Shown in pieces: positions 9,452 to 57,483 of a stretch of 64,000 bases of DNA. Origin of the DNA: Psammoneis japonica (taxonomy: Eukaryota); assembly GCA_008632985.1 (NCBI GenBank), contig QPGO01000141.1:62001-126000 (forward strand), in the 5' to 3' direction. The position numbers were made by a program, and so were the translations under genes. The notes beneath the pieces were generated by a model. The model ran no database searches, was not told where the DNA came from, and worked only from the letters and a program-made list of their open reading frames with translations. Position 1 is the first letter of the stretch. Each line of letters begins with the position of its first letter.

Positions 9452-9606
9452 GTGAGGGTGGTGAAGGGGAGATCTAAACGAGAGTGTAATTTTGAAAAAA
9501 TACAAGAGCTTAAAAAATAATATAGGGAAACATTAAGACAAGGCATAGTATATGTAGGGGGCAGAGATTGAGGCATATCTCCTCCCTAGTAGGTGACATC
9601 TTTTGA

Positions 9607-9913: not shown

Positions 9914-11698
9914 TTATCTTTCGTCTCCTTCCATGGATTTATATCTGCAAGACGTCTTTGCGCTACTTGTGCATTTGAACTTGAGTGGTACAGGCCGGTC
10001 GGATTGAAATCGCCGTGGACGCTCTTCATTTGAAACTGGGAATCCTCCAAGGCTCTTGCCTAGCTTCTTGTACGCCTTTCTTCGAGAAGTTAGTTTGTAC
10101 TTTGCAGCAAAAGTACAGGCAAGTGAATCCTTCATGAGGTAGCTCTTGTGACTTTTACCCTTCCCACTCCAGCGTCCCTCAAACGCCTCGAGCATGCGCG
10201 AATAGTAGGAACGAATATCATGTTCCTTCCAATTGATACACCTATCGTGTCTTTTTCCACAAAATTCAGTTTGAGTGTTCTGCGACGTTCTTTTGATAAA
10301 GCCCGCACAAATCATGCATCTTAATTCTTGTTTGCTTTCTGGCAAACACACAATTTCGGCTTTTCTGAGAGATTGTTTCCTTTCTGATTTAGCCATGCTC
10401 GTCTCTGGCGATGTTCTCCCTCTATTGAAGTGGTTAGAGGGACACTCAGAGTCCTTTTCGATATTAGAAATTGCTGCTCCAGTGCCGATGTCAATCCAAC
10501 GCCTTGCTTCGTCATTCATACAGACAATGGGAGAGCTTCGATTGATTACAAGGCTATCAGAGTGATTTCTGCTCACAGCAGACGATCCATTCGCTATTTC
10601 ACTTTTGTCTTCAAACAGCATTCCACCCAATTGACCAGCTTGGCATTTTCTCACCAGATCGTGCACCACTCCCGCACCATCTTGATTGCTAGTTGCTGCA
10701 AATGCCTCAAAGAATTCTGTTGGATCTTCGGTTGGAGCTTTCAACCCTAGCGCTTTGACATAAAACAGGTCTTTTACAAAGGACCCGTGTCGATTGAGAG
10801 CCTTCAGTATGACCTCCACAATGGCTCGCGATAACTCGTCGTCCATCATTCCCTTGGTAGGTTCCATGGCTCCACAGGATATCAATAGTGCTTTTGAATC
10901 AATGTCATTGTGCACATGTTTTAACCTTGGTCTCATACCGGGAGTGTCAATTAATGTAATGGATTCCTTATTTCCTACTTCCAATACGTGCTTTTTGGTC
11001 GACAGTGTCCACCCAGCCGTTTTCGAAATCTTGGGTAAATGATGTCCCTTTTTCTTTTTCACCTTCATGGTTCGATGTTTTGTAATTGGTAGAATAACAC
11101 TACTCTTTCCTGCATTGGGTGCTCCGCAAACAAGTGCGGTGTTGGAAGCATTGTCATTGGGATGAGTAGTGGCAGCAAGTTTCGCTCCACCCAACAGGGC
11201 ATTCACGACTTGCCGTAGTGACTTTGCTTTCAACTCGTTTGCGTTTCGTAGATTAAGTGCCATCACAGCAATCTTTCTCTTGTTATTATTCTTTCCACAT
11301 TGTTCATGCTGCACTTCCACTTGTTTCATTTGAAACAAAAGTGCCTCATCCGACAGAAAATCAGCACGAGTCAGAATCCTCATCAAGACTGGCGCGTTCT
11401 GCAGTGGAATTGTGCTCGGTGGAACTGCGTCAAAGAGCTTGTGCGTAACTCCAACATTACAGATATTCATGACTTCCACCACCAAGTGCGGACGATTCAT
11501 TATTTCTTTTATCAGTCGAACTGCCTGCGCAATGTAATACTCTTCCGAGGTACCACCCTGACCGCGTTTTATTCGTCGGCGATTGGAAAAATGACAACGC
11601 GAGACATTACCCGTGCATTGGAAGTTAGACCCGAGAGGAGCAGGGCGACGGAAATATGCCCAAGAACGTCGCTGATGGTGCCGAAAAGAATACATCAT
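9914..11698 (-). CDS. Circularly permuted GTPase (RbgA/YlqF/MTG1-like), probably organellar, with a C-terminal group II intron maturase domain-X-like segment
   Basis: G4-like LTRADF, then G1 CGAPNAGKSS, G2 AGWT, G3 LIDTPG; Arg-rich N-terminus; SLACTFAAKYKLTSRRKAYKKLG near the C-terminus. Confidence 0.75.
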   Translation of the reverse strand: MMYSFRHHQRRSWAYFRRPAPLGSNFQCTGNVSRCHFSNRRRIKRGQGGTSEEYYIAQAVRLIKEIMNRPHLVVEVMNICNVGVTHKLFDAVPPSTIPLQNAPVLMRILTRADFLSDEALLFQMKQVEVQHEQCGKNNNKRKIAVMALNLRNANELKAKSLRQVVNALLGGAKLAATTHPNDNASNTALVCGAPNAGKSSVILPITKHRTMKVKKKKGHHLPKISKTAGWTLSTKKHVLEVGNKESITLIDTPGMRPRLKHVHNDIDSKALLISCGAMEPTKGMMDDELSRAIVEVILKALNRHGSFVKDLFYVKALGLKAPTEDPTEFFEAFAATSNQDGAGVVHDLVRKCQAGQLGGMLFEDKSEIANGSSAVSRNHSDSLVINRSSPIVCMNDEARRWIDIGTGAAISNIEKDSECPSNHFNRGRTSPETSMAKSERKQSLRKAEIVCLPESKQELRCMICAGFIKRTSQNTQTEFCGKRHDRCINWKEHDIRSYYSRMLEAFEGRWSGKGKSHKSYLMKDSLACTFAAKYKLTSRRKAYKKLGKSLGGFPVSNEERPRRFQSDRPVPLKFKCTSSAKTSCRYKSMEGDER

Positions 11699-12280
11699 CG
11701 TTCTTCTTTTGCCATATCAACTTTTGCCTCTCTATGAGTTACTTCGATAGTTGATGGGTGTCGCCATGTCGCTATCAGGAAAAAGAAAATCGAAAATAAA
11801 TCGAAATGCGGCGTTCTGTCGCTGTCGGTACCGGGCGGTATGTATACGACGATATCTATCTACGTCTATTGGTTCCTCCTCTTTTAGGTGGAACTCTCTA
11901 GATCGAAGTCTGAAACCGAAAGATTTTGGATTGCCGCCCTCGCTACTATCAGAAAATAGAGCCATGACGATTGCCTGCACCAATCATTTTGCTGCATTTT
12001 GCGCCGGGCGTTCGAATTAATTATGACACATGACGGTCATTTCGGTGCGCACTTTTGCGCGACCCACGCGACATGACTAACATGCGTTAGTGCGTGGTGC
12101 TGGTTGTTTTGCTTCTGACCGTTCTGTCTTCTGTGAGGTTTCATGAGGCTGTCTGTGCATGTTGATGTTGTCCAGTTGTGCATGTTGATGTTGTCTGAGG
12201 CAAGCTGCGTTGGATTAAGTGAGTGTGGAAATGTGCGAAATTTGCGCATTGTTGCAGCTTCTTTGCCAAACAGTCAGTCC

Positions 12281-12856
12281 TCATTTGTGGCCACACTCAA
12301 TCCGCGGCGGCTTGAGTGAAAGTCCATGTGCATGCATTTTGCACATTGATGCAGTTGTCTTTGCCAAATGGTCATTTGCAATTTGCTCATTCCATTCTTT
12401 CTGGCCACACTTCTTCTGAAGGGACTTTGCTTGCTCCTTCTCCTGCTCCGCCATCTCCTCCTCGGTGAAAAATCTCCCCGACCGCTGTGGAATCGCCGCT
12501 GCACATGCTGCCTTTAGCTCCTCCATGGTTGAATCATCCTTGGGCGTGACCGTTGTTTCCACATGATGGCTGTCCGCTGTCGTGTTGTCTTGCACAAGCA
12601 CAGAAGTGACACCAAAATTTCCCGAAGCAAGGTCAAACGCCGCTCTTGCTTCTTCCAAGGTGATCTCCTCTTCGTCTTCCTCATTCATCAATGACTGAAG
12701 AAGTTCCGCATGTGTCTGCACCTTTTTCTTGTCCTCACCAGTTTTCTTTGGCTCGTCTGCCTTCTTTGTTTGTTGTTGCAAATCCATGTTTTCTCCATTG
12801 CTGCGTTTTCTGTGACGGTTGCGTTCGCGTTTCTTGGTTTGTTGGTTAAAATCCAT
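12281..12856 (-). CDS. Hypothetical charged protein downstream of RepHel
   Basis: 191-aa ORF with K/E-rich, protein-like composition; no recognised domain. Confidence 0.35.
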   Translation of the reverse strand: MDFNQQTKKRERNRHRKRSNGENMDLQQQTKKADEPKKTGEDKKKVQTHAELLQSLMNEEDEEEITLEEARAAFDLASGNFGVTSVLVQDNTTADSHHVETTVTPKDDSTMEELKAACAAAIPQRSGRFFTEEEMAEQEKEQAKSLQKKCGQKEWNEQIANDHLAKTTASMCKMHAHGLSLKPPRIECGHK

Positions 12857-12921
12857 TCGACGTTGTGTGATGTGTGTGCAGATTTCTGCGCAATGTGCTG
12901 ATCTGATCGAAATGTTTTGTT

Positions 12922-15900
12922 TTACGAAATTTCCGCATTTTTACGGTTGGGGTCGCTGAACAGTTGTGCAGTGGTTGAGCATCCTAATCCAATGTTTGCG
13001 CACTGCATTGACATTTCTGCGCACTGTTGCTGAGAAAAATGCGTGGCGCTTCTCTCCTTCATGAGTCTTGTCAAGGCTTTGTAGCCTTCTGGGACCTTGC
13101 ATTTTCGCAGGTCCTTGCTTGGTGGCTGTTGCATGAACAGCCCTTCTCTGGTCTTTACTCTGGAGAGCACAACATGCACCCAATTCTGAGCGCAGCTCCA
13201 AGAGTGTGCAAACAACTGCAGGACTCCACTCCCTTGCAGTTTGTGCCCTGCAGTGGCATTGTTGATGACAAACGGCAGCTGGGTTGCCTTCAGTTGGAAA
13301 GTGTGCCTTTGTTCATCGCCTTCTTCTAAAATTGGGCTGGGCTTGGCGATGCAAGCCCTGAAAGCATTTGTTTTTGGCTCAACTAAAAACTTCGCGGGGT
13401 CGATGCTTTTGTTGCAGTGTTCCAATGCAACGTGGTCTACCTGGCTGGCAAGCAAAGCAGGAATGCCAATGTTGTTGTCTAAAGTTGCCAGTCTTGGTTC
13501 CTGTCCTGGTTTGAGAACGACCTCATCAACAGTGGCTTGCGTTCCGTTTGCTTGACCGTTTGCTGCATTTTCGTTGAAAGGTGTCATGACTCTGCATCTT
13601 CTGTAAATTCGTAAGACTGGATCCATTCTTCCTGATTGCATGACAACGTCTCCTTCACCACAGTTGTTCCAGAAGCTGTTGCAAACCGGAAATGGTTGGC
13701 AGAGTCTCGTGCCATTCTGCACCTGCAAGTCATCACTGAAAATCAACATTGAGTCAAGGACGTCTCCATCTCTTCCATGCAGTGTTTCCACTCTTTTTTC
13801 GAACAGGCCAGTGTCAATTGCATCTCTGTCCTTATTTGCACATGCAGCATGGCGGAGGTCACTGGGCAGATCATCTTCGTTCTGAACTGCTCGTTCGTTG
13901 ATGCACTCTACATCGTCAACTGCAATCTCACCAGTGCGGAATCTCTTGAGCAGTTTTCCCCATGATGGATCGTCTTTAAACCTGTGTGCACCACGAAGTT
14001 CTATGTGGCAGTTGATCCACTCGTGAAACTCGGGACGTGCATCTTTGCATGGTGGTTTCACTCCTTTTCCGACTGGTTCTAGTTGCCTGAGGTCACCTGC
14101 AAAAACAATGTTCACACCACCGCACGGCTTGCTTGATTCGCTCTTCAATGCTGTTAAATTCTCATGGAGTTTTTCTAGTTCTCTCTTGCTTGCAAAAGAA
14201 ATCTCGTCTGCCACCAAAAGTCTCGTGTCTGACCATGCTTCAGTTTGCTCTTCGGTCATTTGCTTTCTTCTCATGAGGCATGCAACTCGGTGGATTGTGC
14301 CCCCTTTGAGAATGGTCGCAGCCACTCCGGTCAGTGCAGTCACTCTGATTGTGCTTGTTGTGAACGGCTGCTCAACAAGCGAGCAATGCTCTCTTCCGCA
14401 TTCCACGACGAGGTCTGTTGTGGTTGATTTGCCACTTCCACCTGCACCATGTAAAAAGCACACAAGTTGCAACATTCTGTGTCTTTGCACTTCCACGAGT
14501 TTCTTCTATCGGTGAAGGTTTGTTGCGAATTCGTGTCTGCTGTTTCTCCCATTAAGTCCATTGCATGACGTCTCATCTTGAAGAGCGTCTTGGCAGCAAG
14601 TGAGCACAAAGGTTCCTGCTAGAATTTCAAAGGCACGCTGCTGTTGCCCATCCAGTCTTGCTTTCCCAGCCCAGTCTACGACACTTGCTGCAGATCCGTT
14701 TGCTTGACGTGCATCGACGTGTTCTTCCAAACCTGTCATGTCCTCAAATGACCTTCTTGTTCTTTGCGTTCTAGTCAGTGTCACTCGAACAATGTTGTCT
14801 CTTGACAGTGGTCTGCTGTGGATGTGTTGTTGCACTCCTTCATTCTGGTCTTCCTCGTCGGTGTCATCGCCGCCCTCTAGATTCTCAAAAAGTTGTTGTT
14901 CGTTGACCTGGCTTTCCTCGTTTGGTGGGTCAGTGTGCATGTCTGCCAAGCATTTGCAACCACCCATGTGTGAACCTTTCTGTCTTGCACGTTTGCCGCT
15001 CAAATGCGCAGGAACAACTGCTTGGTCGCTCAACCCAATGTCATCGTCTTCTGGCTGCTCTGCCATTTCTTCCAAGAGTGCATCCAGCAGTTGACCCTGA
15101 ACGGCGCCTGAAAGACCTTCTTCCTCGTCACTTTTGCAACAGTCAAACGCAACGTCAGCAGGTCTAAATTGCTCCGTCTTTCTTTGCAGATCATCAGATG
15201 CACTTTTGAGATGAAGGCAGTTGGACTTAGCATCCTGCAGGTTCTGCAAGAAGTTCAAGTTTTCCTCTGCAATGACACCGGCTGCTGCAGAGAGTTGGAA
15301 TTCACACAGGCATGCATGGGTTGTTGGTTTGAGTTCCGTCATTGTTCTGTGAGGCGCAAACAAGGCCAATGCCAACTTGCAGTGCAATTCTTTGTCCAGT
15401 GTTGTTGGTTGCTGCGGATCTGTGAGGCAACCACCAAACTTGGCTGCATCAGGAAAATCACACTGAAGTGCTTTTAACAATCGCGGTTGCTGTCGCTGTC
15501 TGACACCTTGAAGAAACTTGTTCTTCGTTGAATTGTGAGACGGGTGCCTGTGCGCTCTGTTGTCAAACATCATCATGCTGTGTTCGTTTTTCCTTGTGTT
15601 GCGAAGAACTTCGCATTCGCTAAAAAACGCAAACGGACTGAGATTCTCCAGTGCTGTTGGACGACATGGGCAGTGCAAGGCCTGGCATTGGAAGAACGGT
15701 GCATCGCCAAAATGGGCTACAGTCGCAGACACTTCGTCTCTTTCTAGTGTGCTGACAATGTCTTTCAAGGGGCACCATGCGGTCAAATGAGATTTGATGA
15801 AACGGCTTCCGTTCCTTGTTGTGCAAGATGCAAGTGGTGGTCCAATGACGTCCGTCTTGTCATGCGAGCAAGCACCCCACATGAGATGCCTGATTGCTTC

Positions 15901-18652
15901 CGATGCATCAGATGCGTGTTTCCGTAATTCCGTTGCTGTCCTGTTTGCAGTTCGAAGCACTTCGTCGTACGATGCAGTGTCATCTTTCTGGGTGTCTTTT
16001 AGGATGCACTCAATCGTGCATTGAGCAGACGGTCCAGGCATCAACAAAGCAATGTTTGTGTTGCATGTCAGTTTTGATCTGCTTGTTGCAGGGCACGACA
16101 CGTTTTGAAAAGCATCGCACTTTCTCTCTTCGGAACAACTTCCTTCACACACCGACACGTGAAAGTTCCATCCCAGCTGAACCACTTTATCTGAGTGTCA
16201 TCTGCGTTCCTCACTGGGTCATTTGGACATGAAGCAGCTGGTTGCCTGTGACGGCAGTCACCTGGTTTGAGCTCCTCTCGTTTCCTTTTCTTGACTGCGT
16301 GTCCAGTTCCTCGTGTGGGGTTTTTTTACGCATTTTACGCAACTCTGCGCATTTGGGAAAACACGACTTCGTGACGTGCATGTGATGGTTGTAAGCTGCG
16401 TCCGGCATGCATGCCTCTGTTGTCCCTTGCGGACCACTTCGCTGGCATTGCACACACATTGCTTTTAGTCGCTTTGCATGGTTGTCTGGGTGGCGAGTCA
16501 GGCCAGGCACACGGTGCCGTGACTGCAAAAAGCTTTCTACAAACTCGACGTTTGTCCAGCACTTGGTGCAGTGACGACAATGAGCAAACATTCCGTTCTT
16601 CGACTGCTGGCCGTCTTCATGCCTCAGGTTTCTCAGCTGTTGGTTGTCTGCCACTTTTGGAGAGGTGCGACACATTTTTGGCACTGCACAGTCATGATCG
16701 AATGCTTCACGCAACGCGCCAGTGCTGAAGTCCTCGCTGCAGATTAATTCCGTGCTGCAGATCTTCTGAACTGTGTTGGCAAGGTGCTCAGCACCTTTGC
16801 GTCGGATCTGTCTCATTGGCGAATGCAGCTTCTCTCTTGCATTGTTGATCAATGCGAGCCAGATCTGCATGTGTCCGTGTGCTGTCAGACGTCCCTGCTC
16901 CTCAACTGTGGCTAAAAATGCGGCTGGCCTGCCAATGCAGAAGTTAAAGTTTTCTCTTGGTTGGTCAGTGCTCAGATCCCAACCCACTGCCTCTTCTGTT
17001 GCAATGTCAAACAAGCACTCGAATGCAAAGGCTGTTAGACCGGGAAACTTTAGACGCAGTTCATTACATTGCTTGGCCCTGCCAGCAAGAATTTCGTCCG
17101 TCAGTTGTGTCACGTCTTCGTTTGGGTCCAGGATGACACCCGAGTGCAGTTGCACAAGAAATGAATTTGCATCGTCCGGACTGACGGTTAAGAAAATGCC
17201 ACCCTGACCAAAATGATGCTGATGAGTTTCGGCGTTTCTCCTCATTTTCTTTGCTGCTTCGTTGCTGTGTGGCAGAGACGCAGATGCAACGTTGAGTGAA
17301 GGCAAAAAGTGGTGCCCGAGTCCACAATCTCTTCTCTCGCCCAAGTTGCGATCACAAACAGCTCTGTCCACATCGTCCACTGTCAGTTCGTTTGCAAACT
17401 GTGCAGCCTGATTGTTGTCCCTGACTTTCCACCCTGCGCTCTGCAGCATCCTTTGCTTCATTGTCAAGTTGCAGCACATTAACACGAAGAGCTGCTCGTG
17501 GAAGTGAGGCTGGGAAATCCGCGCCAAGTGGTTGGCATGGTGTGCAAGGTTGGTGCCATCTGTGAGACTTCCATCTTTCTTCATTCTCGTCTCATTGATT
17601 CCTCCTCTGCCAAAAGGAAACTGCAGCAGACACGCGTTGATGAAGTTGTTGCCTTTGAAATCACTCGCAGATTCTTCAGACAACTGTGCTTGTGCCTCTA
17701 AATCAAATCCGTTGGCAGCAGCTTCGTGTGCAAGATCTTTGAAGCAGCCCAGGTTGCGCTGACCACCTGTCGCAGGAGACATGGTTCCATCAGGAAAGTG
17801 AACATGAAATGACTCTGAGGTCTCAACATTCGCATTTTCTCCTTCTTCTTTGCTGGTGCTGTCGACAAGTGCGGGATTCCGCAGATTGTGCCTGGCTTCG
17901 TCTAGATTTGTCTGTTGGTGCACCCACTCTTGGTCATGGCACAACAGCCATTCCATCGCCCTTGGCATGCAGTGCATCCTAATTCTGTTCTTTGAACGCG
18001 CAAGTTGTCTTTGCTCCGGAGTCATCTTTCCAGTCATCAGCACAATCACATTCTGATGCAAATTCAGCACGTCGAAGTGCACAACAGTTCTTACGATGCT
18101 TTGCATCTTGACTTTGTAGCACGTCAGACTTCCCTGAAGCTTCTTCTGTTTGCCGCCAAGGCAACTGAAGCAGCACCCGCATGTTTTCACTGGTGTGAGC
18201 ATTGCCAATTCTACTTCGGTTAGAGACAACAGTTCATGCGGCGGGGCACCGAAACAGCAGTTGTTCGCTGTCGCGTGCATTGGCACAACGGCTCTTCCCA
18301 GGCTTCTTCGGCATTTGCTGCAGCAAGTGAATCCGTCGACGCATCGTCTGTCTTCCTGCACTGCGTGTTGGGCGCGGGGAGAAAGTGGCAGGTCTTTGAT
18401 CCAATCAGCATCTTCATGCTCTACAGTGCAGCAGGACTTGAGACGATCAGATGCGCTGTTCCAGTCTGAAGGGGTGAGCAAGTTTCTTGCTGATTCCAGT
18501 GTTTCAAGCGGCAAGCAGCAAACTTCTCCAGGTTTCAGCAGAACGTCACAGACTGAACATGCGTGTGGTCTAAATTCTCCATCTCCATGTAGACAAAGCA
18601 TCTCAAACTTTCTGTTGATTGCACTGCAAACACGGGAGTTGGCCTCGTCCAT
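12922..18652 (-). pseudogene. Helitron Rep/PIF1-helicase (RepHel), split into three ORFs by frameshifts at about 16270 and 14500
   Basis: HUH Rep: FPFGRGG, IFLTVSPDD, VEEQGRLTAHGHMQIW, HHMH...SC, CNTNI...QCTIECILK (YxxxY eroded to CxxxC). PIF1: GAGGSGKS, LLVADEISF, GGVNIVFAGDLRQLEPV, HRFKDDP, ANGT, QLPF..NNATAGHKLQG, HVVLSRVKT. Confidence 0.92.
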
Positions 18653-18738
18653 TTTAATTTAAGCTGATGCTTCAACTCAACAAATTTCAAGAAGTTGCTC
18701 AGTAAAAACAGTTGTTTTTTCAGTGCGATCACCGTGAA

Positions 18739-19380
18739 GCTGCGATCGGTGCTGTCCAATCACCACAGCGATGTGTGTTTTCTCACCACCTGTGGCACTG
18801 CGACTGGTGTCGTCCAGTCACCACAGTGGTTCTGTCCAGTTGATCAACGAACCGCGTCGGTGCCACCCGTTCACCGTGGTGCTGTGTCGTCTTCTCACAA
18901 CCTGTGCAATCAGGTCGATGTGAGCACTGCGACTGGTGCTGTCCAGTCACCACAGCCGAGTCAATTGGTTGCTTGACGAACTGCATCGGTGCCACCCGAT
19001 CACCACAGTGTTGTGTCGTGTTCTCACAACCTGTGTGATCAGGTCTCTGTGAGAGCTGCGACTGGTGTCGTCCAGTCACCGCAGCTGAGCTTGTGCATCA
19101 TCTCACAACCCACGTTACGAGGTGCAGCGCTGTGTTGTTTGCTCACAACCTGTGCAATCAGGTCACTGTGAGAGCTGCGACTGGTGTCGTCCAGTCACCG
19201 CAGCCAAGTGAATTGGTTGCTTGACGAACTGCATCGGTGCCATCCGATCACCGCAGCGTTGTGTCGTGTTCTCACAACCTGTGCGATCAGGTCTCTGTGA
19301 GAGCTGCGACTGGTGTCGTCCAGTCACCGCAGCTGAGCTTGTGCGTCATCTCACAACCTGCGTTGCCAGGTCACTGTGAG
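18739..19380. repeat. Array of same-architecture hairpins upstream of RepHel
   Basis: GCTGCG-ACTGG-tgtcgt-CCAGT-cac-CGCAGC, CTCACA-ACCTG-tgcaat-CAGGT-cac-TGTGAG and CTGC-ATCGG-tgccay-CCGAT-cac units recur in ~120-130 bp modules. Confidence 0.85.
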
Positions 19381-19573
19381 AACTGAGAACTGCGATCGAT
19401 GTGGCCCAACCACCGCAGTTGGATGCTTTTCGTTTCCCTTTGTGCAAAGGTTCTGTCACAAAAAAGTGAGACGAAAGTGTGCCTCTTTCACCTCGATGGA
19501 AGAGTGATGTGTGCGTTCCTCCCACGTCCTTCTTTGCACCAGACGCACGATGTCCCACCCAGTTTCGTCGACG

Positions 19574-19685
19574 TTGAACATCCCATGGGACAAGATTTGG
19601 ATCTTGTTCAAGTTGTTTTGACCATCTGCTCTGAACATTCCATGGGGTAAGATTCGGATCTTGTTCAAGTTGTTTCGGCAATCTT
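19574..19685. repeat. ~57-bp tandem duplication with a small hairpin (AAGAT-tcgg/ttgg-ATCTT)
   Basis: CCATGGG..AAGATTYGGATCTTGTTCAAGTTGTTT occurs twice. Confidence 0.75.
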
Positions 19686-20048
19686 GGTGGTGGGCACAGC
19701 TTTGCGCAAATTCCATGGAATCACGCTTTGACGAGTGGCGGGGCAGTTGAGTCAGTCGTGTGGCAATGACAACGCGATTGACGTCATTCGTGTTTCCAAA
19801 GTGCGCGCGAATCCTCCAAATGGGTGATGGGCCCACCTCAGCTAACTGCCGGCACAGCAGTGACAGCGATGGCGTCGACCATTTGGCGACTAGATTTCAT
19901 GCGCGATGGCCGCGCGGCAGCAACGGCTGAAAGCACATGAAGCACGGACGGAATTGCACGTGATTTTGTGCATTTTCAGTGAGCTCAGTGCGACTTTGCG
20001 TGCTCCAATCCTTGCACCTGTTTTGTTCAAATTGAGTCCACACACCAC

Positions 20049-21092
20049 TTGCAAGTGCTGACACCTGGAAGGTCACCTTGTTGCAGTTCGACGTGTTTGG
20101 ATCTAGTTGCTGACGTTGCCAGTTCTCCTTGGCATGATGTGCGCAGCTCTGCTGGGTCTTTCTTGGCACTTCTGAACGATCGCACTTTTTGTTCCCACAA
20201 TTTCTCTCCGACTGATTCGATGGCATGCAAAAGAAACACAATGACCTCCCCGGCTGCGAAAGCCAAAGTCGCCGAAACCAAACAGAAGAAGGCAAAGACG
20301 AAGTTTTCTGATGCTCTGTTGAAGAAACTAAGTCCGCCCCGCAAGACCAACGGCTTGACCGACGACGACCTTAAACCGGAAGACTGCCTTGCCAAGCACG
20401 GGTTCAAGCTTTCCAAATCCGCCGGTTCTGACGATGGCAGCCATTCCGACAAGGACGCCCTCCTGCGCTGCGCCACCGTCACTGTTGGCCGCAAGAAAGG
20501 CGTCGTTTTTTGTCTCCAAGCCAAGAATCCCCTTTCAACCAATGTTTGGTCAGAGAAGGTTCTGTTTGACAACCTTCGCAGCAGGACTCCGTGGGCGGTT
20601 CAAGTCGGATTCCACCCTTGCGCTGGCAGGTGGGTTCACGAAGGCGAGTTGCAGACAAACGCCAAGAACTGCGCCGTGCGTCTCTTCTTCATCTTCCTCG
20701 AAGAAGTCCCAACCGATGCTGAAGTGCACGGCCTCGGGAAGTGCATTGCAAAGCAGCTCAACGATGACCCTGAGAACAACGCCGAGGTCTTCGTTGAAGA
20801 CGACTTCTTCTGGATGAAGGATGCTGTTTGGTCCGAAGTGATCAGCAACAAGGCGGCGCTCACCAAGCTTCAGAAGGAAGGTGGTCAGTTTCACATCGGT
20901 TGGTGCGCCCAAAACAAGAACTTGCTTCACAGTCACTTCTACGAGGGGTCGTTGCCTGTGGAACTCTGTTGTCTCATTGGAGCTCCAGTGGAAGAAGCTG
21001 GAGAAGAGGCCGACGATGATGTCGAGCTCAACTGCGAAGTTGACCTGAATGTCGATGACAACTTGGTGCTTCAGGACAGCAACGAAGACTGA
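20049..21092 (+). CDS. Hypothetical cargo protein (likely start about 20220-20241)
   Basis: 347-aa ORF with a basic N-terminus, globular middle and acidic tail; almost Tyr-free. Confidence 0.5.
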   Translation: MQVLTPGRSPCCSSTCLDLVADVASSPWHDVRSSAGSFLALLNDRTFCSHNFSPTDSMACKRNTMTSPAAKAKVAETKQKKAKTKFSDALLKKLSPPRKTNGLTDDDLKPEDCLAKHGFKLSKSAGSDDGSHSDKDALLRCATVTVGRKKGVVFCLQAKNPLSTNVWSEKVLFDNLRSRTPWAVQVGFHPCAGRWVHEGELQTNAKNCAVRLFFIFLEEVPTDAEVHGLGKCIAKQLNDDPENNAEVFVEDDFFWMKDAVWSEVISNKAALTKLQKEGGQFHIGWCAQNKNLLHSHFYEGSLPVELCCLIGAPVEEAGEEADDDVELNCEVDLNVDDNLVLQDSNED

Positions 21093-21180
21093 GTTGTTTT
21101 TTTTTTTTGCCGGTGTGGTGTAAATTTGCAAATGTTCAGTGAACTGAGTGTCGATTGCAACTCAGCTTTCCTCTGTCTCT

Positions 21181-22224
21181 TCAAGTGTGCACCATCTCCG
21201 ACAACAACTTGTCGTTACCGCGAAGCAATGGCGAATTGAGCAGAGTAACTAGCGTGTGACGTCCAGTGCAGTGACAGCAAAAAAACAGTTCAGTTGAGTT
21301 CTTAAGTGAAATTGGCTGTTTCGCGACGGGCAAATGCTTCCGTTCCAAGTGTGTCGGAGTGGGACATCGCATGTGCTGGCTGGTTGACTGAGAAGTCTCC
21401 TCTTTCTTGGTGCACTTGTGGAAGACGAGATGTTTCACGTCTCCGCTGTGCCACAAAAAGTCGCCATCATGGCAATCCGCCATGAAGGACTCGCACATCC
21501 ACTCTCCCGCGTGCGACGCGAACAGTGGATCTAGCGCCACCACCACGGTCCCAGCACGACACAACTTCGAAAGCATTGCCTCTGCCTTCTGCTGTGTGTT
21601 CTTGTCGTCGACCATGCGGGAGTTGCAGTTGTTGAAGAACACCTTGAGTCCTTTCTTTTTCCACAAAGGAGCCAGCCTCTCGTCCAAGAATGACTTGTTG
21701 ATCAACTCTGACCCGCCGTTTCAGCGAAGGCCAGCACGATGAGCCCAACGTACAGCCTCTTGGTGATGATCGTGGTCGGCCTCGATGCTCACCATGGTGC
21801 AACGGCGACGAAGTAACTTGAGCCCAATGCTGGGTCCGGCAACTCCCCCGCCCATGTCGACAGATGCATCGCAGGTGTGATTCATGCCAAGAAGGCGTTC
21901 GTTCAAAAACACTTTGCTGCTCAAAGCGAAGCCAACTTCGCCGCTGTGTGAAGATCCGCTTCTGTCTCCGGAGACACGCCTGCTCTGGAACGCGGAGTCC
22001 GGAGCCGTTTGAAGACAAAACTCCCCAACACTTCTGCAACGATGGTTCATTGCACCCAACCTTGTGGCAACATCAACCTTGCTTGCAGCGGGTTCGACCA
22101 GACGTCGCGTTTCCAAACCAAACTGTGATGTGCGCAGAATGCGTAAAATTGCCGTCGCGCCCTCTGTGCGCGCGAAATTTTCAAACGCGGCGTGCCACCT
22201 CTGCCTGCACATGGAGCGACGCAT
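21181..22224 (-). pseudogene. DOT1-like SAM-dependent methyltransferase, single frame interrupted by a stop at 21721-21723
   Basis: SGEV...DASVDMGGGVAG (cf. YGE...DxFxDLGSGxG), VSIEAD, KVFFNN...LCRAGTVVVALDPL (cf. VIFVNN...LKxGTRIVS); ORFs 21721-22224 and 21181-21705 are in frame. Confidence 0.55.
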
Positions 22225-22461
22225 GAAGTCATTTTAAACAGACATGCAAACGCGTTGAAACAACAAGACGCCTTTAGGCAATAAAATTTGTTTTGAATCT
22301 CGGCCTGCTTCTCATCGTCACCGTACTTGCACATCGGTGTAATTCAAACGCACAAGCTGGCACGGCATGCAACGCACTTCTACGTGAGAACTCGCACCGA
22401 GATTGCCGTGGGATGATCCTCCCTCCGCGGAGACAAAAACAACGCGACAACACTTCCGTCA

Positions 22462-23931
22462 TTGCATTTTGAAACACATTTCAAATTGAGACACACCATG
22501 TCGCAACTGCCTCGTGCCTCGCTGCGTCGTCCCACCAATGACAAGCACTTGTCGCGATCGAGTTGCAGCCGGTCTCGACAGTGTGGGGGTTTGGGACGTG
22601 CAGCTCGCAGCCCGACAACAAGCAAACACTTCTCGCGATTGGGTTTCGACCCCACTCCCCTGGAGTCCGCCGGTCCCTGTCAACAGAGTTTTGCTTTGGG
22701 TGCTCTTGAGGCAACGGAAAGCAGACACATCTCTCGATTGGGTTTTGACCCCACTCCCCTGGAGTCTGCCGGTCCCTGTCGACAGAGTTCTGCTTTGGGC
22801 ACTGTTGAGACGACAGCGACAGTGTCAAGCAGCGGAACATTTGCCGGCGAGTTCGCACACACGTTCTCTGCAAACACCGCATCGTCAATGCGCACCAGGA
22901 CACACGAGAACGTGTTGAGGGCTCAACCGCCACTTCGCAAGGCCCGCCGCAGCCGCAGGCGAATCCGCAGCCGCGCCAGCAGGAAAACATCCAAGATTGC
23001 TTGCCTCATTCCACTCGCACCATGTGCCACTAAGAGTCTCTCCATGCACTGCATAGCCAACCGCACTCCAGTTTGTGACGGCGACTACACTCAGCCTGCA
23101 CCACCTTGTCTTGCTGACATTGACTTTGCCGAGTTGGCTCCTCTGGTCGTCTGTGACCCTGTGCTCGATCTGAAGCCTTTCTTTGGCTTGGACGGTTGCC
23201 GCTGCGACAACACCTGCACCCTGCTGCCGCGTTCTGCTGTGGTGTTCAGCTCCCCCAACCCAGCAGAACTGGTTGCTCAGTGCCGAGCGCTCGAAGCACT
23301 AGAATGCTGCACCGCCCAGTCCACCGTGCGCGGCAAACAACGCGTCACCTTCATGGAGACGGACAGGAGCAAGCATTCCACGATTGGCCTGGCTGCCACG
23401 AGAGATGCTCGAATTTCTTGCAAGCAGCCTGGCACAGCCGACCAACACACTCACCACCTCACCAGACTTCTTTCACGCATGGAGCACCTTGTCAATGAGT
23501 GCGTGGACCATGCCATCCTTGAGGGCATCGCTCGTGTCAAAAAGTTTCACAACTGGAAATCCCTGGCACGGTCAGATGGCATTTTCTCCTCTCTGGCGGC
23601 TGGGCGCAATGTCTTCCTCAACGCCCATCGGGACCAGGACTTCTTCCTGTCAGTGGTCACCGTGGTGGGAGTCCCTCCGTCCGGCAGCCACACCATGAAT
23701 GACGGGATTGTGGCGCACTTCTGCTTCCCCACCGAAGGCATCTCCGTTGCACTCTGGCTTGGTGATGTCATCATTTTTAACCCCACCAAGCACCACTGCA
23801 TCTCCAGCAGGACAAACTCAAACGACGAGTTCTTCTGCGTGTCTCTCTGCCTGAAGAGTGCTGCAGTGGGCAAGAATGACAATTCAATCCCCCTTTCTCT
23901 AGAGGAAGAGACCATTCTCAGGCGATTGTGA
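22462..23931 (+). CDS. 2OG-Fe(II) dioxygenase, TET/JBP-like
   Basis: C-terminal DSBH signature: LAAGRNVFLNAHRDQDFF (HxD), FCFPTEGISVALWLGDVIIFNPTKHHCIS (distal H), then a final strand CVSLCLK. Confidence 0.6.
   Translation: MHFETHFKLRHTMSQLPRASLRRPTNDKHLSRSSCSRSRQCGGLGRAARSPTTSKHFSRLGFDPTPLESAGPCQQSFALGALEATESRHISRLGFDPTPLESAGPCRQSSALGTVETTATVSSSGTFAGEFAHTFSANTASSMRTRTHENVLRAQPPLRKARRSRRRIRSRASRKTSKIACLIPLAPCATKSLSMHCIANRTPVCDGDYTQPAPPCLADIDFAELAPLVVCDPVLDLKPFFGLDGCRCDNTCTLLPRSAVVFSSPNPAELVAQCRALEALECCTAQSTVRGKQRVTFMETDRSKHSTIGLAATRDARISCKQPGTADQHTHHLTRLLSRMEHLVNECVDHAILEGIARVKKFHNWKSLARSDGIFSSLAAGRNVFLNAHRDQDFFLSVVTVVGVPPSGSHTMNDGIVAHFCFPTEGISVALWLGDVIIFNPTKHHCISSRTNSNDEFFCVSLCLKSAAVGKNDNSIPLSLEEETILRRL
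22622..22805. repeat. ~102-bp in-frame tandem duplication (SRLGFDPTPLESAGPC x2)
   Basis: Two near-identical units within the dioxygenase ORF. Confidence 0.85.
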
Positions 23932-24153
23932 CAGCACAAAATGGCTTGCTAAATTTGCGTAAATTTGCTGACTTTCTGTGCTCAGGCGACTGTGCAGGCA
24001 CCTGCCAATTCACCAGATTTGCGTAAATTTGCCGACTTTCTGTTCTTCCTCGTTCCCATTTTTCGAACCACAACTGGGGCTACGCCTTTCCAACTGATGC
24101 TGCAGTTTCACTGAAAAACACCAACACACTGTGCCACTAATTTACAGAGCACA

Positions 24154-25611
24154 CTACACGGCAAACGTTTTGCCAGATGCAGAGCTTCTCCCCCCCGACT
24201 TGGGGAGTAGACGCAATTTCTTCTTCCGATTCATGGCACCCGACGTTGCCTTCCTCTTCTTCTTCTTCTTCTCCGATTCATCCAAGTTGCATCTGCAGAG
24301 AAATTCCTCCCCGGGCATGATTCGCTTCGTGACCACCAAGCACCCGTCGTTGTAGAACTCGCAGTTGTTGTCCGCGTGTTGGCTTGCCTTGATCTTCTTC
24401 TTGTCCTTGAATGACTCAGTGGCATCGTTCACGCAGTGCATTCCGAGGTAGAGTGGATGGGAATTCTTGTTCCCTGGACCACTAAAATCAAGTGGTTTTG
24501 GCTCCACTGTGACGCAGTGGCCCTCGCTGTCACGGATGGCAGAGCAGCACACGCTGTCTTCTCCAAACTTGCTGTCGTGGTCGCACCACGAGTGGCTCCT
24601 CGTTGCACCGGGCACCCTGGGGCCCACATAGATTCCAACCGCACTGCCTTTCTGGAACTGGCGCAAAGCAAAAAAACCAATGCCTGTGCCCCTCCGTTGC
24701 GACACGCGTGGCTCGCCCACCTCCACCTCCTTGGGGCCTGCGGAGCGAACGGACTTTTCGAGGCAAAACAACGCAGGTTGAAGTGACACGGCGCCTCATC
24801 CAAATGTGCACACTTCTGCACTTGCTCTCTTCACGAGGCAGACCAGTGCAAGTGACCACCCCGCTTCGAAAGCCTCGACGGCGGTCTTGAACACTTTGTT
24901 GCTCTTTGGCGTCGAGTCTGGGATGCCCCTCTTGCCGACTTCCGTGCGGTGCCTCCACACCCACTTGCAGTGTTTGCCGTGAGCATTTGCGACGGCTTCA
25001 GGGTCGCTCCTGATGCACCCCAGTTCTCCCAGCGTGGGGAACCAGAGGTGGGGATTGTTCGGCGCATCCTTCATCAGGCACATGGACTCCTGGAAATTGT
25101 CGGATTTTTCGTGCCGCAACACCCAGCCCCACAAGTCGAATGACGGATCGTTGGGGTCCAGAAATTGCTCTCCTTCTTCTTCCTCTTCCGCCGTTGCTTT
25201 CGCGACCACTTTGGCCGTGGGCTTGGCTGCCTCCTCGCTTTTGCCGCTGCAAAAAGGTGGGACCTCCGGTTTCACAAAGGTGGCCTGATCACCCACCAAC
25301 TTGATCTTGTAACCGGCCTCAAGGAGCTGCTCGGCGGTGCAACCCAGCTGCTGTGCTTCATTCCAACCACAAATTTGAAAGGTTGGCTCCGGCGGCACGA
25401 CTTTCTCCCTCTTTTCAGTTTGGGACTGCGCCGGCTTCTCCGACATCCTTGCGCGTTCGGACTCGACGGACACACCCTCGGCACTTCCCTCGGCGCCAAG
25501 TGCAGTCATGGCAGCTGCCGCCACGCCTTTGGCGCCCGTGAGTTCTGCCATGACTTCCGGAGCTGCTGCATCCTCTGCTTTGCCAGACGCAACGATGTTG
25601 TCCTCTGCCAT
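24154..25611 (-). pseudogene. SET-domain protein, single frame with an internal stop at 24796-24798
   Basis: GIGFFALRQFQKGSAVGIYVG, LGMHCVND, NNCEF...VTKRIMPGEEFLCRCN (final catalytic Tyr position is Cys); ORFs 24796-25746 and 24154-24789 are in frame. Confidence 0.8.
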
Positions 25612-26947
25612 TCTAGTGCCGTGATGACAGAGCTGCACTGACTGCTGTGTGGTGTGCTGCTCCACTCCAGCCGTTGGCGATCCACATCCTTCTGCGCACG
25701 TAAACGTGTGACACTTCGCACCAAATTCCACGCAGCGCGTCTGCACCTGTCTGCGTCCGTCTTCACTGCTGTGCGCACTGCGGTGCTGCAGCGCACCCTT
25801 TCAAACCTTCATCAATGTTTGTTTTTTCCTTCCCTTTCCTTTTCTCTTCTTCTTCCATCTGGCTGGGAGGAACTGCTGGACAGCCGGCCTCATTTTGCAC
25901 TTGCGTCAGTCCGTGCCACCTCAAGAGCATCACACCATGCCGCGGTCCGTGTGATGATGATGTCGCACCGTAGTGCTTCTCGCCACTCGATCGCGCTGTC
26001 GCTTTTGCATGTCACATCAGCATGCTGCCAACAGAACAAAATACATTGTTGCCATTGTGCTGTCATTTTTTGTCATTCCACTCCTTGAATCGATTTAGAG
26101 AAAAAGCAAAAAACAACAGAAAATGAAATCAAGTGATTGAAAGAGAAAAGCCAAGGAAGAAAAAGATTGAAATCAATCCATGCGAGCATTGAGATTTTGC
26201 CAAAGTGATCAAACTGGCCATGGAGCATTTCTCCAGAAACAAAGAAGCTGCCAGGCAGCTCATCATTGAGTGCTTGCTTGAGGCCTCCACTGAAGGGGAG
26301 CTCACATCTGCCCAGCAAGAGCAAAAGGATTGTGCAGAGTTGCTTTCCAGAGAAATGGAAAACATGTCATTGGCGACAAAAGAAAAGGAGAAGCAGGTCA
26401 GGTTCTTGCCCAAATTGTGCAACATGACGATCAACCTGTGGCTTCAGAGCAACAGAGGTTGCAAAGATTTTAAAAAAAAACTCCATGGTTTGTCTTCCAC
26501 CCATCACCTGACACTCAGTTGTGATTGCTGCTTTTCCTGCTGTGCGACAGTGGACTTTGCACCACTGAATGGAAAGTTGCATTTTCAAGCAGCATCCCAT
26601 GGAAACGACAAGCTGTGGTTGTGCGATCCTGCAAGTGACACAACTCAAATGCAGACAACATCCATTGCATGATCCCGTTGGTGACACGACTCAAATGATC
26701 ACAGTCAGGCAGGTTGATGGAGGATGAGTTGACTGTTGCAGATGGAAAGCTTTGTTTTTTGGCAAGTGATGACACACACACAGATCAGAGCTTTGGGTTT
26801 GCAACCCTGAGAGCAACATGGCTTGAATGGCTGGAAACATCAATCTTGGAGAGGAAGGTTCATCCACACAGAAAGTTTGATGCCAGTGGATGGAAGGCTG
26901 CATTTCCTTGCCTTTGGCAAAGCAGCAGCACATTTTGTGCAGCACGC

Positions 26948-27525
26948 GGGTGATGAAAAGGGGAGATCTAAACGAGAGTGCAATTTTGAAAAAATGCAAG
27001 AGCTTTAAAAAATGCAACAGGGAAACACAAGACAAGGCATGTGTGGCAAACCAACAATGTGTCATGTGGGGGGCAGATGCAGAGTGCAGCTTGCGACACA
27101 TCGTTGTCCTCTCTCCAGCTGTGCTTCTGCCACTCTCTCTGGCAGCTGGCTTTGCCACTTTGTGCATCTTGGTTGAAAGTGGGATGATCCTTGGTGTGCA
27201 CAAGTGTTGCATTCTCTCCATGCACTTTGTGCATCTTGAAAGTGGGACGGTCCTTGGCGAGCCAGTGTTGCGGCTGGTGCACCTGCTGCTCTCCAGCTGG
27301 CTCTGCTCTCTGGCTGGCTGGAGGAGCGGCTCTCTCTGCTGCCAGCTGCTTCAAAGCTTTCCAGCTCTAGCAGCTGCTCTAGCAGCTGCTCCACCACTGC
27401 CAGCAGTAGAGAGAGAGAGAGAGAGCATGGCACTGTAGAGCCGCCGCCGCCGACGGTTGCAACACATTCGCGTTTTTTGCTTTGGTTTTAAAAAATAGTT
27501 CGTAAACGCATGCGTGAGATGATGG
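26948..27525 (+). repeat. Dispersed repeat copy B (TpA-eroded)
   Basis: GGGGAGATCTAAACGAGAGTGCAATTTTGAAAAAATGCAAGAGCT...GGTTGAAAGTGGG...CATTCGCGTTTTT is homologous to 9452-9800. Confidence 0.85.
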
Positions 27526-31880: not shown

Positions 31881-31929
31881 CAAAATGCAGTGTGATTGAC
31901 ACAAGAGAATGAAATGTAAAAATGCATTT

Positions 31930-33982
31930 CTAATTGTTGTTTGACTTGAATGCACACGCGGATCCGGAATTCCCGCCATTGACATCAGCTTGACGAGCAC
32001 CAACTCCAACAATGCTTCCGTCTGCCGACAAGGACACGGAATATCCAAAAAGATCACCTTCAGCCTCGCCATTTAAAGGATCTCCGACTTGCATCCATTC
32101 ATCTGCATTGCTGTCATGCTGAAAGATTCGAACTTGACACGCCCACTCCAATCCATTGACGCCACGCCAAATGCTTCCGACCGCCAAGACGTTTCCATTG
32201 CCACTCAATGACACGGACAATCCAAAGCGATCACCAGGCCGTTGTGTCAAGAGAGTTTGGCCGAGTTGATTCCATGTCAGAGTCGAGCGGTCGTACGAAT
32301 AAACCAAAACCCGCCCGTTGTTTGTTCCCCGTTCACCCGCGGTCACGATCAAACCGCTGTCGTCAAGAGAAACCGAATGTCCAAACTCACCATCAACGAC
32401 TTGTCCATTGATTGGACTGCCCAACAAATCCCATTTTGATGACGCAGAATTGTATTCATAGACCGACACTTGACCTGCATTGTCTCCACCCGAATCATTG
32501 TCGTTGGCTCCAACACCGACAATGGTTCCCTGATCATTCAAGGAAACGGAACGTCCAAAATAATCATTAGCGGATTGGCCAATCAGTGTTTGTCCGAGTT
32601 GGCTCCAGGATGAGGAGTCGTGGTCGTATTGAAAGAATCTAACCGATCCTGAATTAGAGCCATTTTCCGTGTCATCCAAATAAGCTCCCACAGCAAGAAT
32701 GTCTCCCGCATCCGAGAGTGACACAGAAATACCAAATAAATCAGCAGCGTCTTGTCCAAGAATATCGTTACCGAGTTGGACCCAACGATCCGATGCCGAG
32801 TTGATTTCAAACACCCGAACATGACCGGCAATCGATCCGCCACTGCCATTCCATGGAGCTCCAACCGCAAGAATTGTGCCGTCGCCATTTAATGAAACAG
32901 ACTCGCCAAATTCGTCGCCGCCGGTTTGTCCAATCAATTCTTGGCCAAATTGTGTCCATTGATGGGTACTTGTATTGTATTGTTGCACAACAACATAGCC
33001 GGGATTGGAAGAAAACTCTTGATTCGCTCCAATAGCCATTACACTACCATCACGAGACAAGGAGACGGAATAGCCAAAATTATCATCTGCAGCTTTGCCG
33101 CGCAAGACTTGCCCAATCAATGGACCAGCTGAGTAAGGAGTTGGCCGGTACATTTCCAAACGGATGTCATCTTTACTTAGCGCCATGTCATATAGGCCGA
33201 CAGAATCCATGTGACCCGTAAAATAATTGTTCCTTTCCTCCTCGTTCTCGTGATACTGTAGTGACTGCCAATGTTGAAGGGTGCCCTGTTGACACAGTAT
33301 GGTCCATTCTTTGGAGGCTTGCCCTCACCCGACAATTCTCCATTAATGTAGATTCTCAATGTAATGCCGTCGTAAGTCATGGCGGTGTGCGTCCAAGTAT
33401 CGGTAGGAATGGGATTGTTGCTCTCAATTCTGAACTTGCTGTTCCCATTACAGCCACTAAAATAGCCACCGGCCCGCACCTTGCCGGTTTCCTGATGAAT
33501 GACGAGCCACGTCGCATATGGTTTCTGAATAATGACCTGAGCAAAGTCGTCCGTAGGGACGTATCGTACCCATGCCATCATGGTATAGGATTTCATGTTG
33601 AGATTGGTAGATTCGGGTACAAGAACATGGTGCCGGCCTTTCAAGCTGAGAGCATTCTTGAAATAACCGACCGATTCGCCGGATGGTCCGCCACTTTGTC
33701 CTTGTTTTCCATTCCATCCCATCTTTCCCGTATCCTTGAAAAGTCCATGAAATCCATCAAATGTATACTCCACAAGCGGTCCAATGCATGGTTTCAAGCT
33801 AGGTAGACTGACTGACGTTGGAAACAGCTCGCGATTCTTACCAACGTAGAGAGGGAAGTGTTCAGGCGAGTTGATGGTAAGGCATGCTTCTTGTCCTTGC
33901 TTCAAGACGAAATTGAAGCCGTCTACATCACCTCTATCCAGCTGAAAGTTGAAATCCGTACCGTTCACCGAATCCATTCCTT
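31930..33982 (-). pseudogene. 5'-truncated paralog of the LamG + FG-GAP repeat gene
   Basis: Colinear with 57484-59545; lacks signal peptide and start; frameshift at about 33250. Confidence 0.85.
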
Positions 33983-41100: not shown

Positions 41101-41255
41101 TCTGTTGTGGCAGGAATGTCACTTTGATCTGGGATTGGATCTTGGGTTTGCAACTCTTGGGCAACTGAGCAACACGTCGGTGAGTGTCTCCAATGGCAGG
41201 CCATTCGCAAAAAACTTTGGCCACAACCGGGACAGAGAAGAGGGTTTCCGTCCAT
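38194..41255 (-). pseudogene. Plavaka transposase
   Basis: VIYLDKT, WKPIGCLPDL, DCHTCVRVVLEPL, IVLITGDAKSGD...CRFC, DMMHLFENG, WKLQKLCETLH...NFDAGLEE..LK, CRAHPDC...WCDFACV. Confidence 0.85.
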
Positions 41256-41706
41256 TGTAAATCAGACAATGTTGACAGGGCCTTCATCAAGACTCATGCT
41301 CGTCGTCCTTGTCTTGTGGATGAGAAGGGAAAAAAGAACAACATGCAAAAAATGGCGGGAAATTGGCAAACATCACACTGTCTTCCAGATTGGGATGATT
41401 CTTGTGGGTGTGACGCATCTGCATTTTGATTTTTTATCTGGCATCCACAACGAATGTTGTGCTTTTTATTTGCTGTCAAAATGCAGGACATTGTCTCCAT
41501 TGAAACGCAATGACAGCCATGTCAAAAAGCAAGTTGGGCCATTCGTTGTTACACACAAATGTGTTTTCAAATTTCAATGTTGCTGACAACAACCCATGCA
41601 ATGTCACAGAGAAAAACAGAGTGCCTGGCTGTCTCAACACGACCCAAACGATGGTTGCACTGTCAAACAGCACCACTCCTCTCATTGTTGCAGTGAAAAG
41701 ATCAAG

Positions 41707-47050: not shown

Positions 47051-48037
47051 AAGGGGTTGAGACAACTCAGCTTTCTCATTGTCCAGACCATTTGGAAGGA
47101 GGTTCGGGCATGGCTTGGACACAAAGCCATCCTGCTGTGAAAGAGATTGATGCGCAGGGACAGCAAGAACCCAGGCTTCCACAGCAAACCCAACAAGCTC
47201 TCCTTTGCAGGCTGAAACTCATGCAGTGTTGGTGGCACAGCAATGACACCTTCACGCTGCTGGAAGTGGGTTTCCAAAGACTTTTTCACCATTTCAAGAA
47301 CCAGCCGCACAGTGTCCATCTTTCCAGGTTGTTTTGTGTCCAACCCGCTTGTTGTTGTTGTTGTTGTTGCTGGTTGCTGCAGCAACATGCCAAACACTCC
47401 CATGTTTGCATGAGTGGCAATCTGTCTGCACATGTGCGGTGATTTCCATGCATGTTTTGTGCTTTCATCCGTCCACCACCTGCAGCCGGGTTTGGGATGG
47501 AGTTGGTGTGGACGGACAAAAGTGTGCAAAATGTGCGTGGAAATCACAGCACAGGACAACACCGCAATTGCACATGAAACGTGCCATGACAGACACCATG
47601 GAATTCATTTTATTCCAACAAGCACACAACTAAAATGACAAGAAAGTGGATGAGTTGCACAGCCAATGCAGTCGCACGAGCAAGGGGCAGTTGTCGTGCA
47701 CAATTTTTGCAGGCTGTGCACACAAAATTCAAGTTGATTCTGGTGCAGTGTTCAGCATGATGGCAGGTTTTTGTTGTCTTCCAGGCATGATGTCAATGGT
47801 CTCTGTGGACAGCAGGGAGTTGCCTCAAATCTGTTGAAAGGCGAAGCTTTCCCGTCGCGCTTGTGCGTGCAGATGCGGTGCATCTGATTCCAACTGACAA
47901 CTCTGGCAAAATGGACATTTTTGTACGCTGCAACACATGTCCATTGAAGACGTTGCAACTGCCCTTTCCTCACATGAAAATGTTCAGCAACAAATGTTGC
48001 ATCTTCAGTTTACGGTCACAACTCAACGGACAACCGA

Positions 48038-57400: not shown

Positions 57401-57483
57401 CACAAAACTTCAGCACGAATTTTCGAAGGATCCTCCTTGGGCAAATCTTCGCTCAACAAGAAGATGAAATACAAAATACATTT

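Follow-up and report, generated by a model that had tools for sequence, protein, structure and literature searches.

Transposons that supply their own anti-silencing enzymes are known mainly in fungi, with TET/JBP genes, and in oomycetes, with SET-domain genes. In fungi, eleven lineages of DNA transposons, including Helitron1, Helitron2 and Plavaka, carry TET/JBP genes; the role proposed for these genes is escape from methylation-based silencing, and the gene appears to move between transposon lineages (Kojima 2025, PMC12730594). The same article cites Iyer et al. 2014 for KDZ/Plavaka transposons with TET/JBP genes, and earlier work for SET-domain genes on the HarbingerS and MuDR transposons of Phytophthora. 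A mutational signature of foreign DNA has been described in Bigelowiella natans, where de novo mutations in integrated viral DNA occur only at TpA dinucleotides, which become TpG or CpA, and where transposon domains are over-represented among TpA-poor coding sequences (bioRxiv 10.64898/2026.01.13.699255). Here we describe a block of about 14 kb that brings these themes together in a 64,000-nucleotide stretch of the Psammoneis japonica genome (assembly GCA_008632985.1, contig QPGO01000141.1, positions 62,001 to 126,000 of the forward strand). This whole stretch is called the window, and all coordinates count from its first letter.

Our reading, to which we assign a probability of roughly 0.6, is that the block at ~11.9-25.9 kb is one degenerate copy of a ~14-kb, high-copy Helitron family whose cargo comprises a TET/JBP-like gene, a DOT1-like gene and an open reading frame (ORF) that possibly contains a SET domain. 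An earlier annotation made from the letters of the window, hereafter the original prediction, had proposed a giant Helitron-like element carrying these three chromatin- or DNA-modifying enzymes; because TET-carrying Helitrons have already been described in fungi, the novelty of such an element is smaller than was assumed there. The features of the block are as follows.

11897..12030, no strand: left boundary zone (3′ side of the minus-strand element); a contig of unique flank DNA reaches to 11896, and TpA is depleted from ~12030 onward
12281..18658, minus strand: RepHel gene, broken in the window copy, as four consecutive open frames with Pfam domains
18752..19371, no strand: hairpin-forming tandem array (periods 129 and 248) immediately upstream of RepHel
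19575..19684, no strand: 53-nucleotide unit in two direct copies that are 87% alike
19983..21092, plus strand: open frame of 369 codons, lying within 19837-22225, a segment absent from a variant copy
21328..22050, minus strand: DOT1-like methyltransferase coding region (ORF 21181-22233), 50% identical to the relative P0008
22620..22814, no strand: 99-bp tandem repeat of 1.8-2 copies, within the upstream third of the frame 22417-23931
23044..23931, plus strand: TET/JBP-like 2-oxoglutarate (2OG)-Fe(II) dioxygenase, with H195-x-D197 and H251 retained
24154..25800, minus strand: SET-like open frame with an in-frame TGA at 24796-24798 and a sub-threshold SET match at ~24295-24684
25864..25893, no strand: right boundary zone (5′ side of the minus-strand element); a contig of unique DNA begins at 25864

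Evidence that the block is present in many copies, and that its two halves travel together, comes from one DNA sequencing run from the same species (X1), from which 3939 contigs were placed on the window at a likeness of at least 80% and their word depth was summed in 650-base bins. Summed depth is ~48-53 to the left of 11603 and ~58-66 to the right of 26577, and it lies between 2280 and 5836 in all 22 bins covering 11604-25925, which places the block at ~40-110 times the depth of its flanks. The depth steps occur at the two outer ends only. Contigs from the unique flanks differ from the window by 0-16 letters each, and the unique contig that starts in the right boundary zone has a depth of 62 and no differences at all. 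Moreover, two contigs join 12977/12988 directly to 24965, and these joints are an internal-deletion derivative that retains both ends of the block. The depth over the whole block and the deletion joints together indicate that RepHel and the cargo region belong to a single repeat unit. As first proposed, the element ran from 12030 to 26076; the depth data place the left end at ~11897-12030 and draw the right end in by ~180 bp.

The transposase identifies the element as a Helitron. A Rep/HUH domain (Helitron_like_N) and a PIF1-type helicase occur in a single minus-strand gene in the order expected for this group. The gene is distributed over the frames 16211-18658, 14506-16197, 12922-14505 and 12281-12940, and its Pfam matches are to DUF6570 (E 2.7e-11, ~17894-18286) and Helitron_like_N (E 7e-10, ~16868-17506) in the first of these, and to the PIF1-type helicase (E 5.5e-15, ~14038-14463) in the third. 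The spacer parts of the gene gave no match in NCBIfam or PHROGs. An intact frame, as an autonomous element would have, is not present in the window copy: TGA at 16211-16213 and TAG at 14506-14508 interrupt it, and the frame changes near 16197-16211 and again near 12922-12940. Thus the RepHel gene that had been called full-length has the domains and layout claimed for it, but it is not intact. The hairpin array proposed next to it is confirmed, since its units hold short inverted repeats and fold as single-stranded DNA with a z score of −6.2, a value equaled by none of 100 shuffled sequences.

The best-characterized cargo gene is the TET/JBP-like dioxygenase, which is the downstream portion of the plus-strand open frame 22417-23931. 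The 99-bp repeat in the upstream third of this frame is probably not coding. Five sequence homologues align from 23044 onward, the best of which (P0003) is 46% identical (E 4e-65), and H195, D199 and H251-C-I-S-S are invariant in all six aligned sequences; the window itself reads H195-R-D197. Searching PDB sequences with a profile of the family returned nothing significant. An AlphaFold model built from the six sequences (predicted local distance difference test score [pLDDT] 55.4, predicted template modeling score [pTM] 0.63) was compared with PDB structures by Foldseek, which returned 17 matches at E≤0.001. Ranks 1 to 10 are all CcTet, the TET protein of Coprinopsis (E 5e-6 to 9e-5), and these are followed by human TET2, NgTet1 of Naegleria, and CMD1. 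We therefore accept the TET/JBP-like assignment at the level of predicted fold and family context: the HxD...H motif, the Foldseek matches to TET proteins and the transposon-linked relatives described below all bear out the 2OG-Fe(II) TET/JBP call of the original prediction.

The DOT1-like frame contains an in-frame TGA at 21721-21723 and no tyrosine codon. When this stop is read through, residues 62-302 match the whole of P0008, a protein of 244 amino acids, with 50% identity over 243 aligned residues (E 2e-82). A HMMER scan with P0008 recovered 24 proteins at E≤0.001, and among 20 scanned relatives of P0008 Pfam DOT1 is matched by eight at E≤0.01, five of which reach the gathering score (at least 23 bits). 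The fold was tested on P0008 rather than on the window ORF, using a model from 22 sequences (pLDDT 86.3). Among the Foldseek matches listed to rank 33, all but one are Dot1L or yeast Dot1, with E values from 1.7e-9 and TMq of 0.59-0.66. The exception, at rank 30, is a catechol O-methyltransferase, and such methyltransferases are common further down. Through this relative, the predicted structure supports a DOT1-like identity for the window gene, in agreement with what had been read from its motifs. Three of the relatives (P0010, P0011 and P0013) are longer, at ~600-640 amino acids with the DOT1-like part at the N terminus, and P0010 and P0013 have a second weak methyltransferase match near residue 400.

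The third cargo gene is less certain. The SET-like frame exists as proposed, and its SET identity is confined to a match below the Pfam cut-off (given below); the whole frame scores E 0.036 against the same model. No homologue was found among proteins of near length, and PDB, NCBIfam and PHROGs gave no match. Under profile and fold searches, therefore, two of the three enzyme calls survive (TET/JBP and DOT1) and the SET call stays sub-threshold. An additional ORF of unknown type had been noted between the hairpin array and these genes. The open frame at 19983-21092 is indeed there, but no family or relative was found for it in library and homology searches, including NCBIfam and PHROGs, and its status as a gene gains no support from any of them.

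The window copy has decayed. Most differences between it and the other copies in X1 are transitions (A>G 112, T>C 99, C>T 104, G>A 85), and each type of transversion was counted 12 times or fewer. In all nine X1 contigs that cover position 14507, the base there makes a sense codon of the TAG, and most of the depth supports single-base insertions after 16125 and after 16289. When the unchanged window is read in its three frames, it can be seen that with this majority state RepHel would be a single uninterrupted frame from 18658 to ~12922, which suggests that the family was probably intact not long ago and that the window holds a decayed member of it. Of the 24 best-supported differences within the block, 13 have CG in other copies in place of the TG or CA of the window (two of these, with their neighbors, are TG-to-CA swaps), four involve TA, and seven are of other kinds. 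The decay private to this copy is thus mostly loss of CpG, while the TpA-poor state is largely shared among copies. The window copy is inactivated: it has stops and frameshifts, and hardly any tyrosine codons remain in it.

Two other explanations for the state of the reading frames were considered and rejected. A genetic code in which TGA is a sense codon was suggested by the TGA breaks in the two cargo frames. It does not account for the RepHel gene, whose frames also end at TAG and TAA or shift, and whose TAG is private to the window copy; conversion of CGA to TGA through CpG decay fits the private CG-to-TG/CA changes. Likewise, the long ORFs could be an artifact of the loss of TAA and TAG. 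This view is not supported: the block has 3.25 ORFs per kb and the left flank 2.94, owing to an enrichment of TGA.

Depletion of TpA is not confined to the element. The ratio of observed to expected TpA is 0.41-0.73 in each kilobase up to 12000. It falls to 0.07-0.20 all along the block, and from there to 64 kb most non-genic kilobases have values of 0.00-0.15. TG and CA are correspondingly frequent in the block (1.2-1.8), and G+C content rises along it from 0.48 to 0.58. The region 26076-64000 is a mosaic in which non-genic kilobases have CpG of 0.08-0.6 and TG and CA of up to 2.3 along with their low TpA, whereas kilobases with host genes (28-29k, 32-34k, 44k, 57-60k and 63k) have TA of 0.3-0.7 and CpG near 1. 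Single-depth DNA at 26.6-27.5 kb is also depleted, so the process is not limited to repeats. The original prediction had treated the block as compositionally uniform. Its low TpA is, however, shared with nearly all non-genic DNA to 64 kb, and G+C content shifts within the block. The host genes in the window are IGPS, two FG-GAP/Laminin_G genes and an Alg9-like gene. The two FG-GAP/Laminin_G genes (31901-33982 and 57456-59546, with FG-GAP_2 repeats and Laminin_G_3) are copies of each other, 84% identical over 2.1 kb, and have normal TpA.

The protein products reflect this composition. Tyrosine makes up 0-0.7% of the block ORFs compared with 2-6% of host ORFs, and cysteine and histidine are at 3-5% each in the block. 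At the nine tyrosine positions of P0008, the window protein has cysteine at five and histidine at one. Host hypermutation of TpA to TpG or CpA has stripped nearly all tyrosine codons from the window copy, and CpG decay, stop codons and frameshifts have damaged it further. We also considered that the TET-like enzyme might itself cause the loss of TpA by oxidizing thymine. This was rejected, as none of the 80 environmental loci carrying relatives of the gene (see below) is TpA-depleted (0.53-0.79). Because these loci have normal TpA, the depletion is attributed to the host and not to the cargo.

Relatives of the TET-like gene were sought by tblastn in metagenome contigs, where 174 stretches encode them and 80 loci were kept for counting neighbors. 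At 50 of the 80 loci the neighbor is a convergent, Plavaka-like ORF of ~950 amino acids. Six loci have a second type of large unannotated ORF, two have a third, one has a RepHel gene, and 21, mostly short contigs, have no classified neighbor. Pfam Plavaka is matched by six of 64 scanned neighbor proteins (E 1e-6 to 2.6e-11), all six being of the 950-amino-acid type. The single RepHel locus (L076:205-7586) has an intact RepHel (Helitron_like_N E 2.4e-34, PIF1 E 1.3e-14) and, after it in the same orientation, a TET-like gene encoding 435 amino acids. It is an independent link between the two genes, in DNA with normal TpA (0.75), and its RepHel has no significant BLASTP similarity to that of the window. 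In a quick tree with long branches, the window TET-like protein clusters with P0003 (support 99) and lies outside both the RepHel-linked L076 clade and the environmental clades linked to Plavaka; because of this separation, two changes on the tree are required to account for the two RepHel links. TET-like proteins at two loci (L011:1806-3764 and L063:515-2614) have an N-terminal Zn(2)-Cys(6) cluster domain of the fungal type, which hints that many of the environmental loci may come from aquatic fungi. No relatives of the TET-like or DOT1-like proteins were found in the viral contigs searched.

A Plavaka-type element is also present in the window. Three consecutive tyrosine-poor frames on the minus strand at 38194-41261 (415, 399 and 230 amino acids) match the Plavaka-like transposases that accompany environmental TET-like genes (best E 1.7e-10), and they represent a decayed Plavaka/KDZ-type element that has no adjacent TET-like gene. 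When the window was searched by tblastn with the Plavaka-like ORFs, matches were confined to 38260-40626, which lies 14 kb from the TET-like gene and beyond host genes. This remnant reveals that such elements live in this genome. The Helitron family may have acquired its TET/JBP gene from another DNA transposon, as the mostly Plavaka-linked relatives suggest, and a Plavaka-type element of this genome is a possible donor.

Several observations weigh against a single Helitron with three cargo genes. Canonical Helitrons have 5′-TC...CTRR-3′ termini and a hairpin near the 3′ end, and insert between A and T without duplicating the target. Although short hairpins occur at 12030-12057 in the left boundary zone, neither the canonical termini nor an A^T insertion site was found at the depth boundaries, which place the ends to within zones and not to the base; the original prediction, too, had not firmly identified the termini. 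X1 may be the sample behind the window assembly and so perhaps not independent of it; its depth, moreover, is a sum over contigs and not a copy number. Bins on the SET side (2280-2780) have about half the depth of the RepHel bins. One X1 contig has 106 other letters in place of 19837-22225, which means that the DOT1-like gene and the unassigned ORF are not in every copy. Because repeat contigs are at most 450 letters long, no one record contains RepHel together with all three cargo genes. The domain assignments have gaps as well. Pfam Tet_JBP (PF12851) matches two of six family members (best E 0.061), the gathering score is not reached and the window ORF has no match; the confidence of the TET-like model is low (pLDDT 55); the DOT1-like window ORF misses the threshold of Pfam DOT1 (PF08123), which P0008 likewise does not match; and Pfam SET (PF00856), matched over model positions 1-102 of 105, gives 17.1 bits (E 0.0075), short of its cut-off of 22.4. 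Finally, the DOT1-like ORF, the SET-like ORF and a window-like RepHel are absent from all 80 loci with TET relatives.

These points give some room to a composite structure, an unlikely but serious alternative in which a Helitron at ~12-19.4 kb lies beside, or is nested with, a separate repeat at ~19.4-25.9 kb that carries the TET/JBP-, DOT1- and SET-like ORFs, their similar copy numbers being due to chance or the two having spread by joint segmental duplication instead of transposition. The missing Helitron termini, the uneven depth (5836 in the array bin versus 2280-2780 at 23973-25925), the variant without 19837-22225 and the predominance of Plavaka-type carriers among TET-like relatives (50 of 80 loci) all fit such an arrangement. 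However, RepHel is the sole transposase in the block, with Plavaka-like matches only at 38260-40626; depth steps occur at the two outer ends and not between the proposed parts; and the 12977/12988-to-24965 joints look as they should if a single element had given rise to a deletion derivative. The claim of one element with cargo therefore draws support from the shared high depth and the derivative that keeps both ends, and is qualified by the 19837-22225 variant and the absence of canonical ends.

Two further alternatives concern the cargo. DOT1, SET and TET/JBP enzymes are ordinary constituents of many eukaryotes, and the cargo ORFs might be host chromatin genes, or their pseudogenes, beside a Helitron insertion. 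We consider this very improbable, since the cargo region has 40-100 times the depth of the flanks and is depleted of TpA and poor in tyrosine like RepHel, unlike the host genes of the window. In the second alternative, the open TET-like frame with its preserved HxD...H motif, and the small number of breaks in RepHel relative to its length, might be taken to mean that the element still functions in its window copy and that its epigenetic toolkit is active. This is the least probable of the explanations and is already contradicted by the two stops and two frame changes in RepHel, by the TGA codons within the DOT1-like and SET-like frames, and by the near absence of tyrosine codons, with conserved tyrosine positions reading cysteine or histidine. 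We thus favor a degenerate copy of a single Helitron family with cargo.

Some features near the block appear unrelated to it. A 94-bp direct repeat (87%) at 9456-9546 and 26948-27040 flanks the block at distances of 2.4 kb and 1 kb from its ends and is probably a small dispersed repeat outside the element. To the left, a minus-strand frame of 600 amino acids (9914-11716) encodes a GTPase domain (MMR_HSR1, E 2.6e-8) and weakly matches a group II intron maturase (E 2.2e-5). A 30-bp tandem repeat forms two arrays, at 48035-48198 and 49240-49405, which are 1.1 kb apart and partly inverted. No second copy of the block was found within the 64-kb window.

What the cargo of such a Helitron family might do can be proposed only by analogy with the fungal TET-carrying transposons. 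Where copies are intact, their enzymes would counter silencing by acting on the chromatin or DNA marks of the element itself, as has been proposed for the fungal elements. The window copy is no longer able to counter silencing. The most far-reaching version of this idea, in which a recently active, high-copy, non-fungal Helitron carries TET/JBP, SET and the first DOT1-like transposon cargo as a counter-measure to hypermutation, seems to us quite improbable. If it were true, the family would spread despite a mutational defense directed at TpA, its majority RepHel frame being continuous even though nearly all TpA and tyrosine codons are gone. A host in which foreign DNA is marked through hypermutation of TpA and loss of CpG would provide a system for asking whether cargo protects an element and, more broadly, how host mutational defenses and transposon counter-measures interact. 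What is new here is the joining of a DOT1-like gene to a TET/JBP gene on one Helitron family; no report of DOT1 with a Helitron, or as transposon cargo, was found in the literature searched. The TET-like family itself is widespread in aquatic metagenomes, mostly on Plavaka-type elements.

The closest known systems are the fungal TET Helitrons, which share with the P. japonica element the combination of a RepHel transposon and a TET/JBP-type dioxygenase gene. They differ in that the element described here adds a DOT1-like gene and possibly a SET gene (the term DOT1 has no occurrence in the available part of PMC12730594), and in that its host has a TpA signature so far described for a chlorarachniophyte and not for a fungus. 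A likeness to the KDZ/Plavaka elements is evident in the environmental loci, 50 of 80 of which place this TET-like family next to Plavaka-type transposases, whereas the window gene sits within a repeat that bears RepHel. The SET transposons of Phytophthora resemble the element in placing a gene of the histone-methyltransferase type on a DNA transposon, although the carrier here is a Helitron and the identity of its SET domain is unproven. As in B. natans, TpA is lost and CpA and TpG are gained in transposon-like or non-genic DNA while host genes are spared; in the window, by contrast, the depletion is near-complete (0.00-0.2), extends over most non-genic DNA and is coupled to the loss of CpG.

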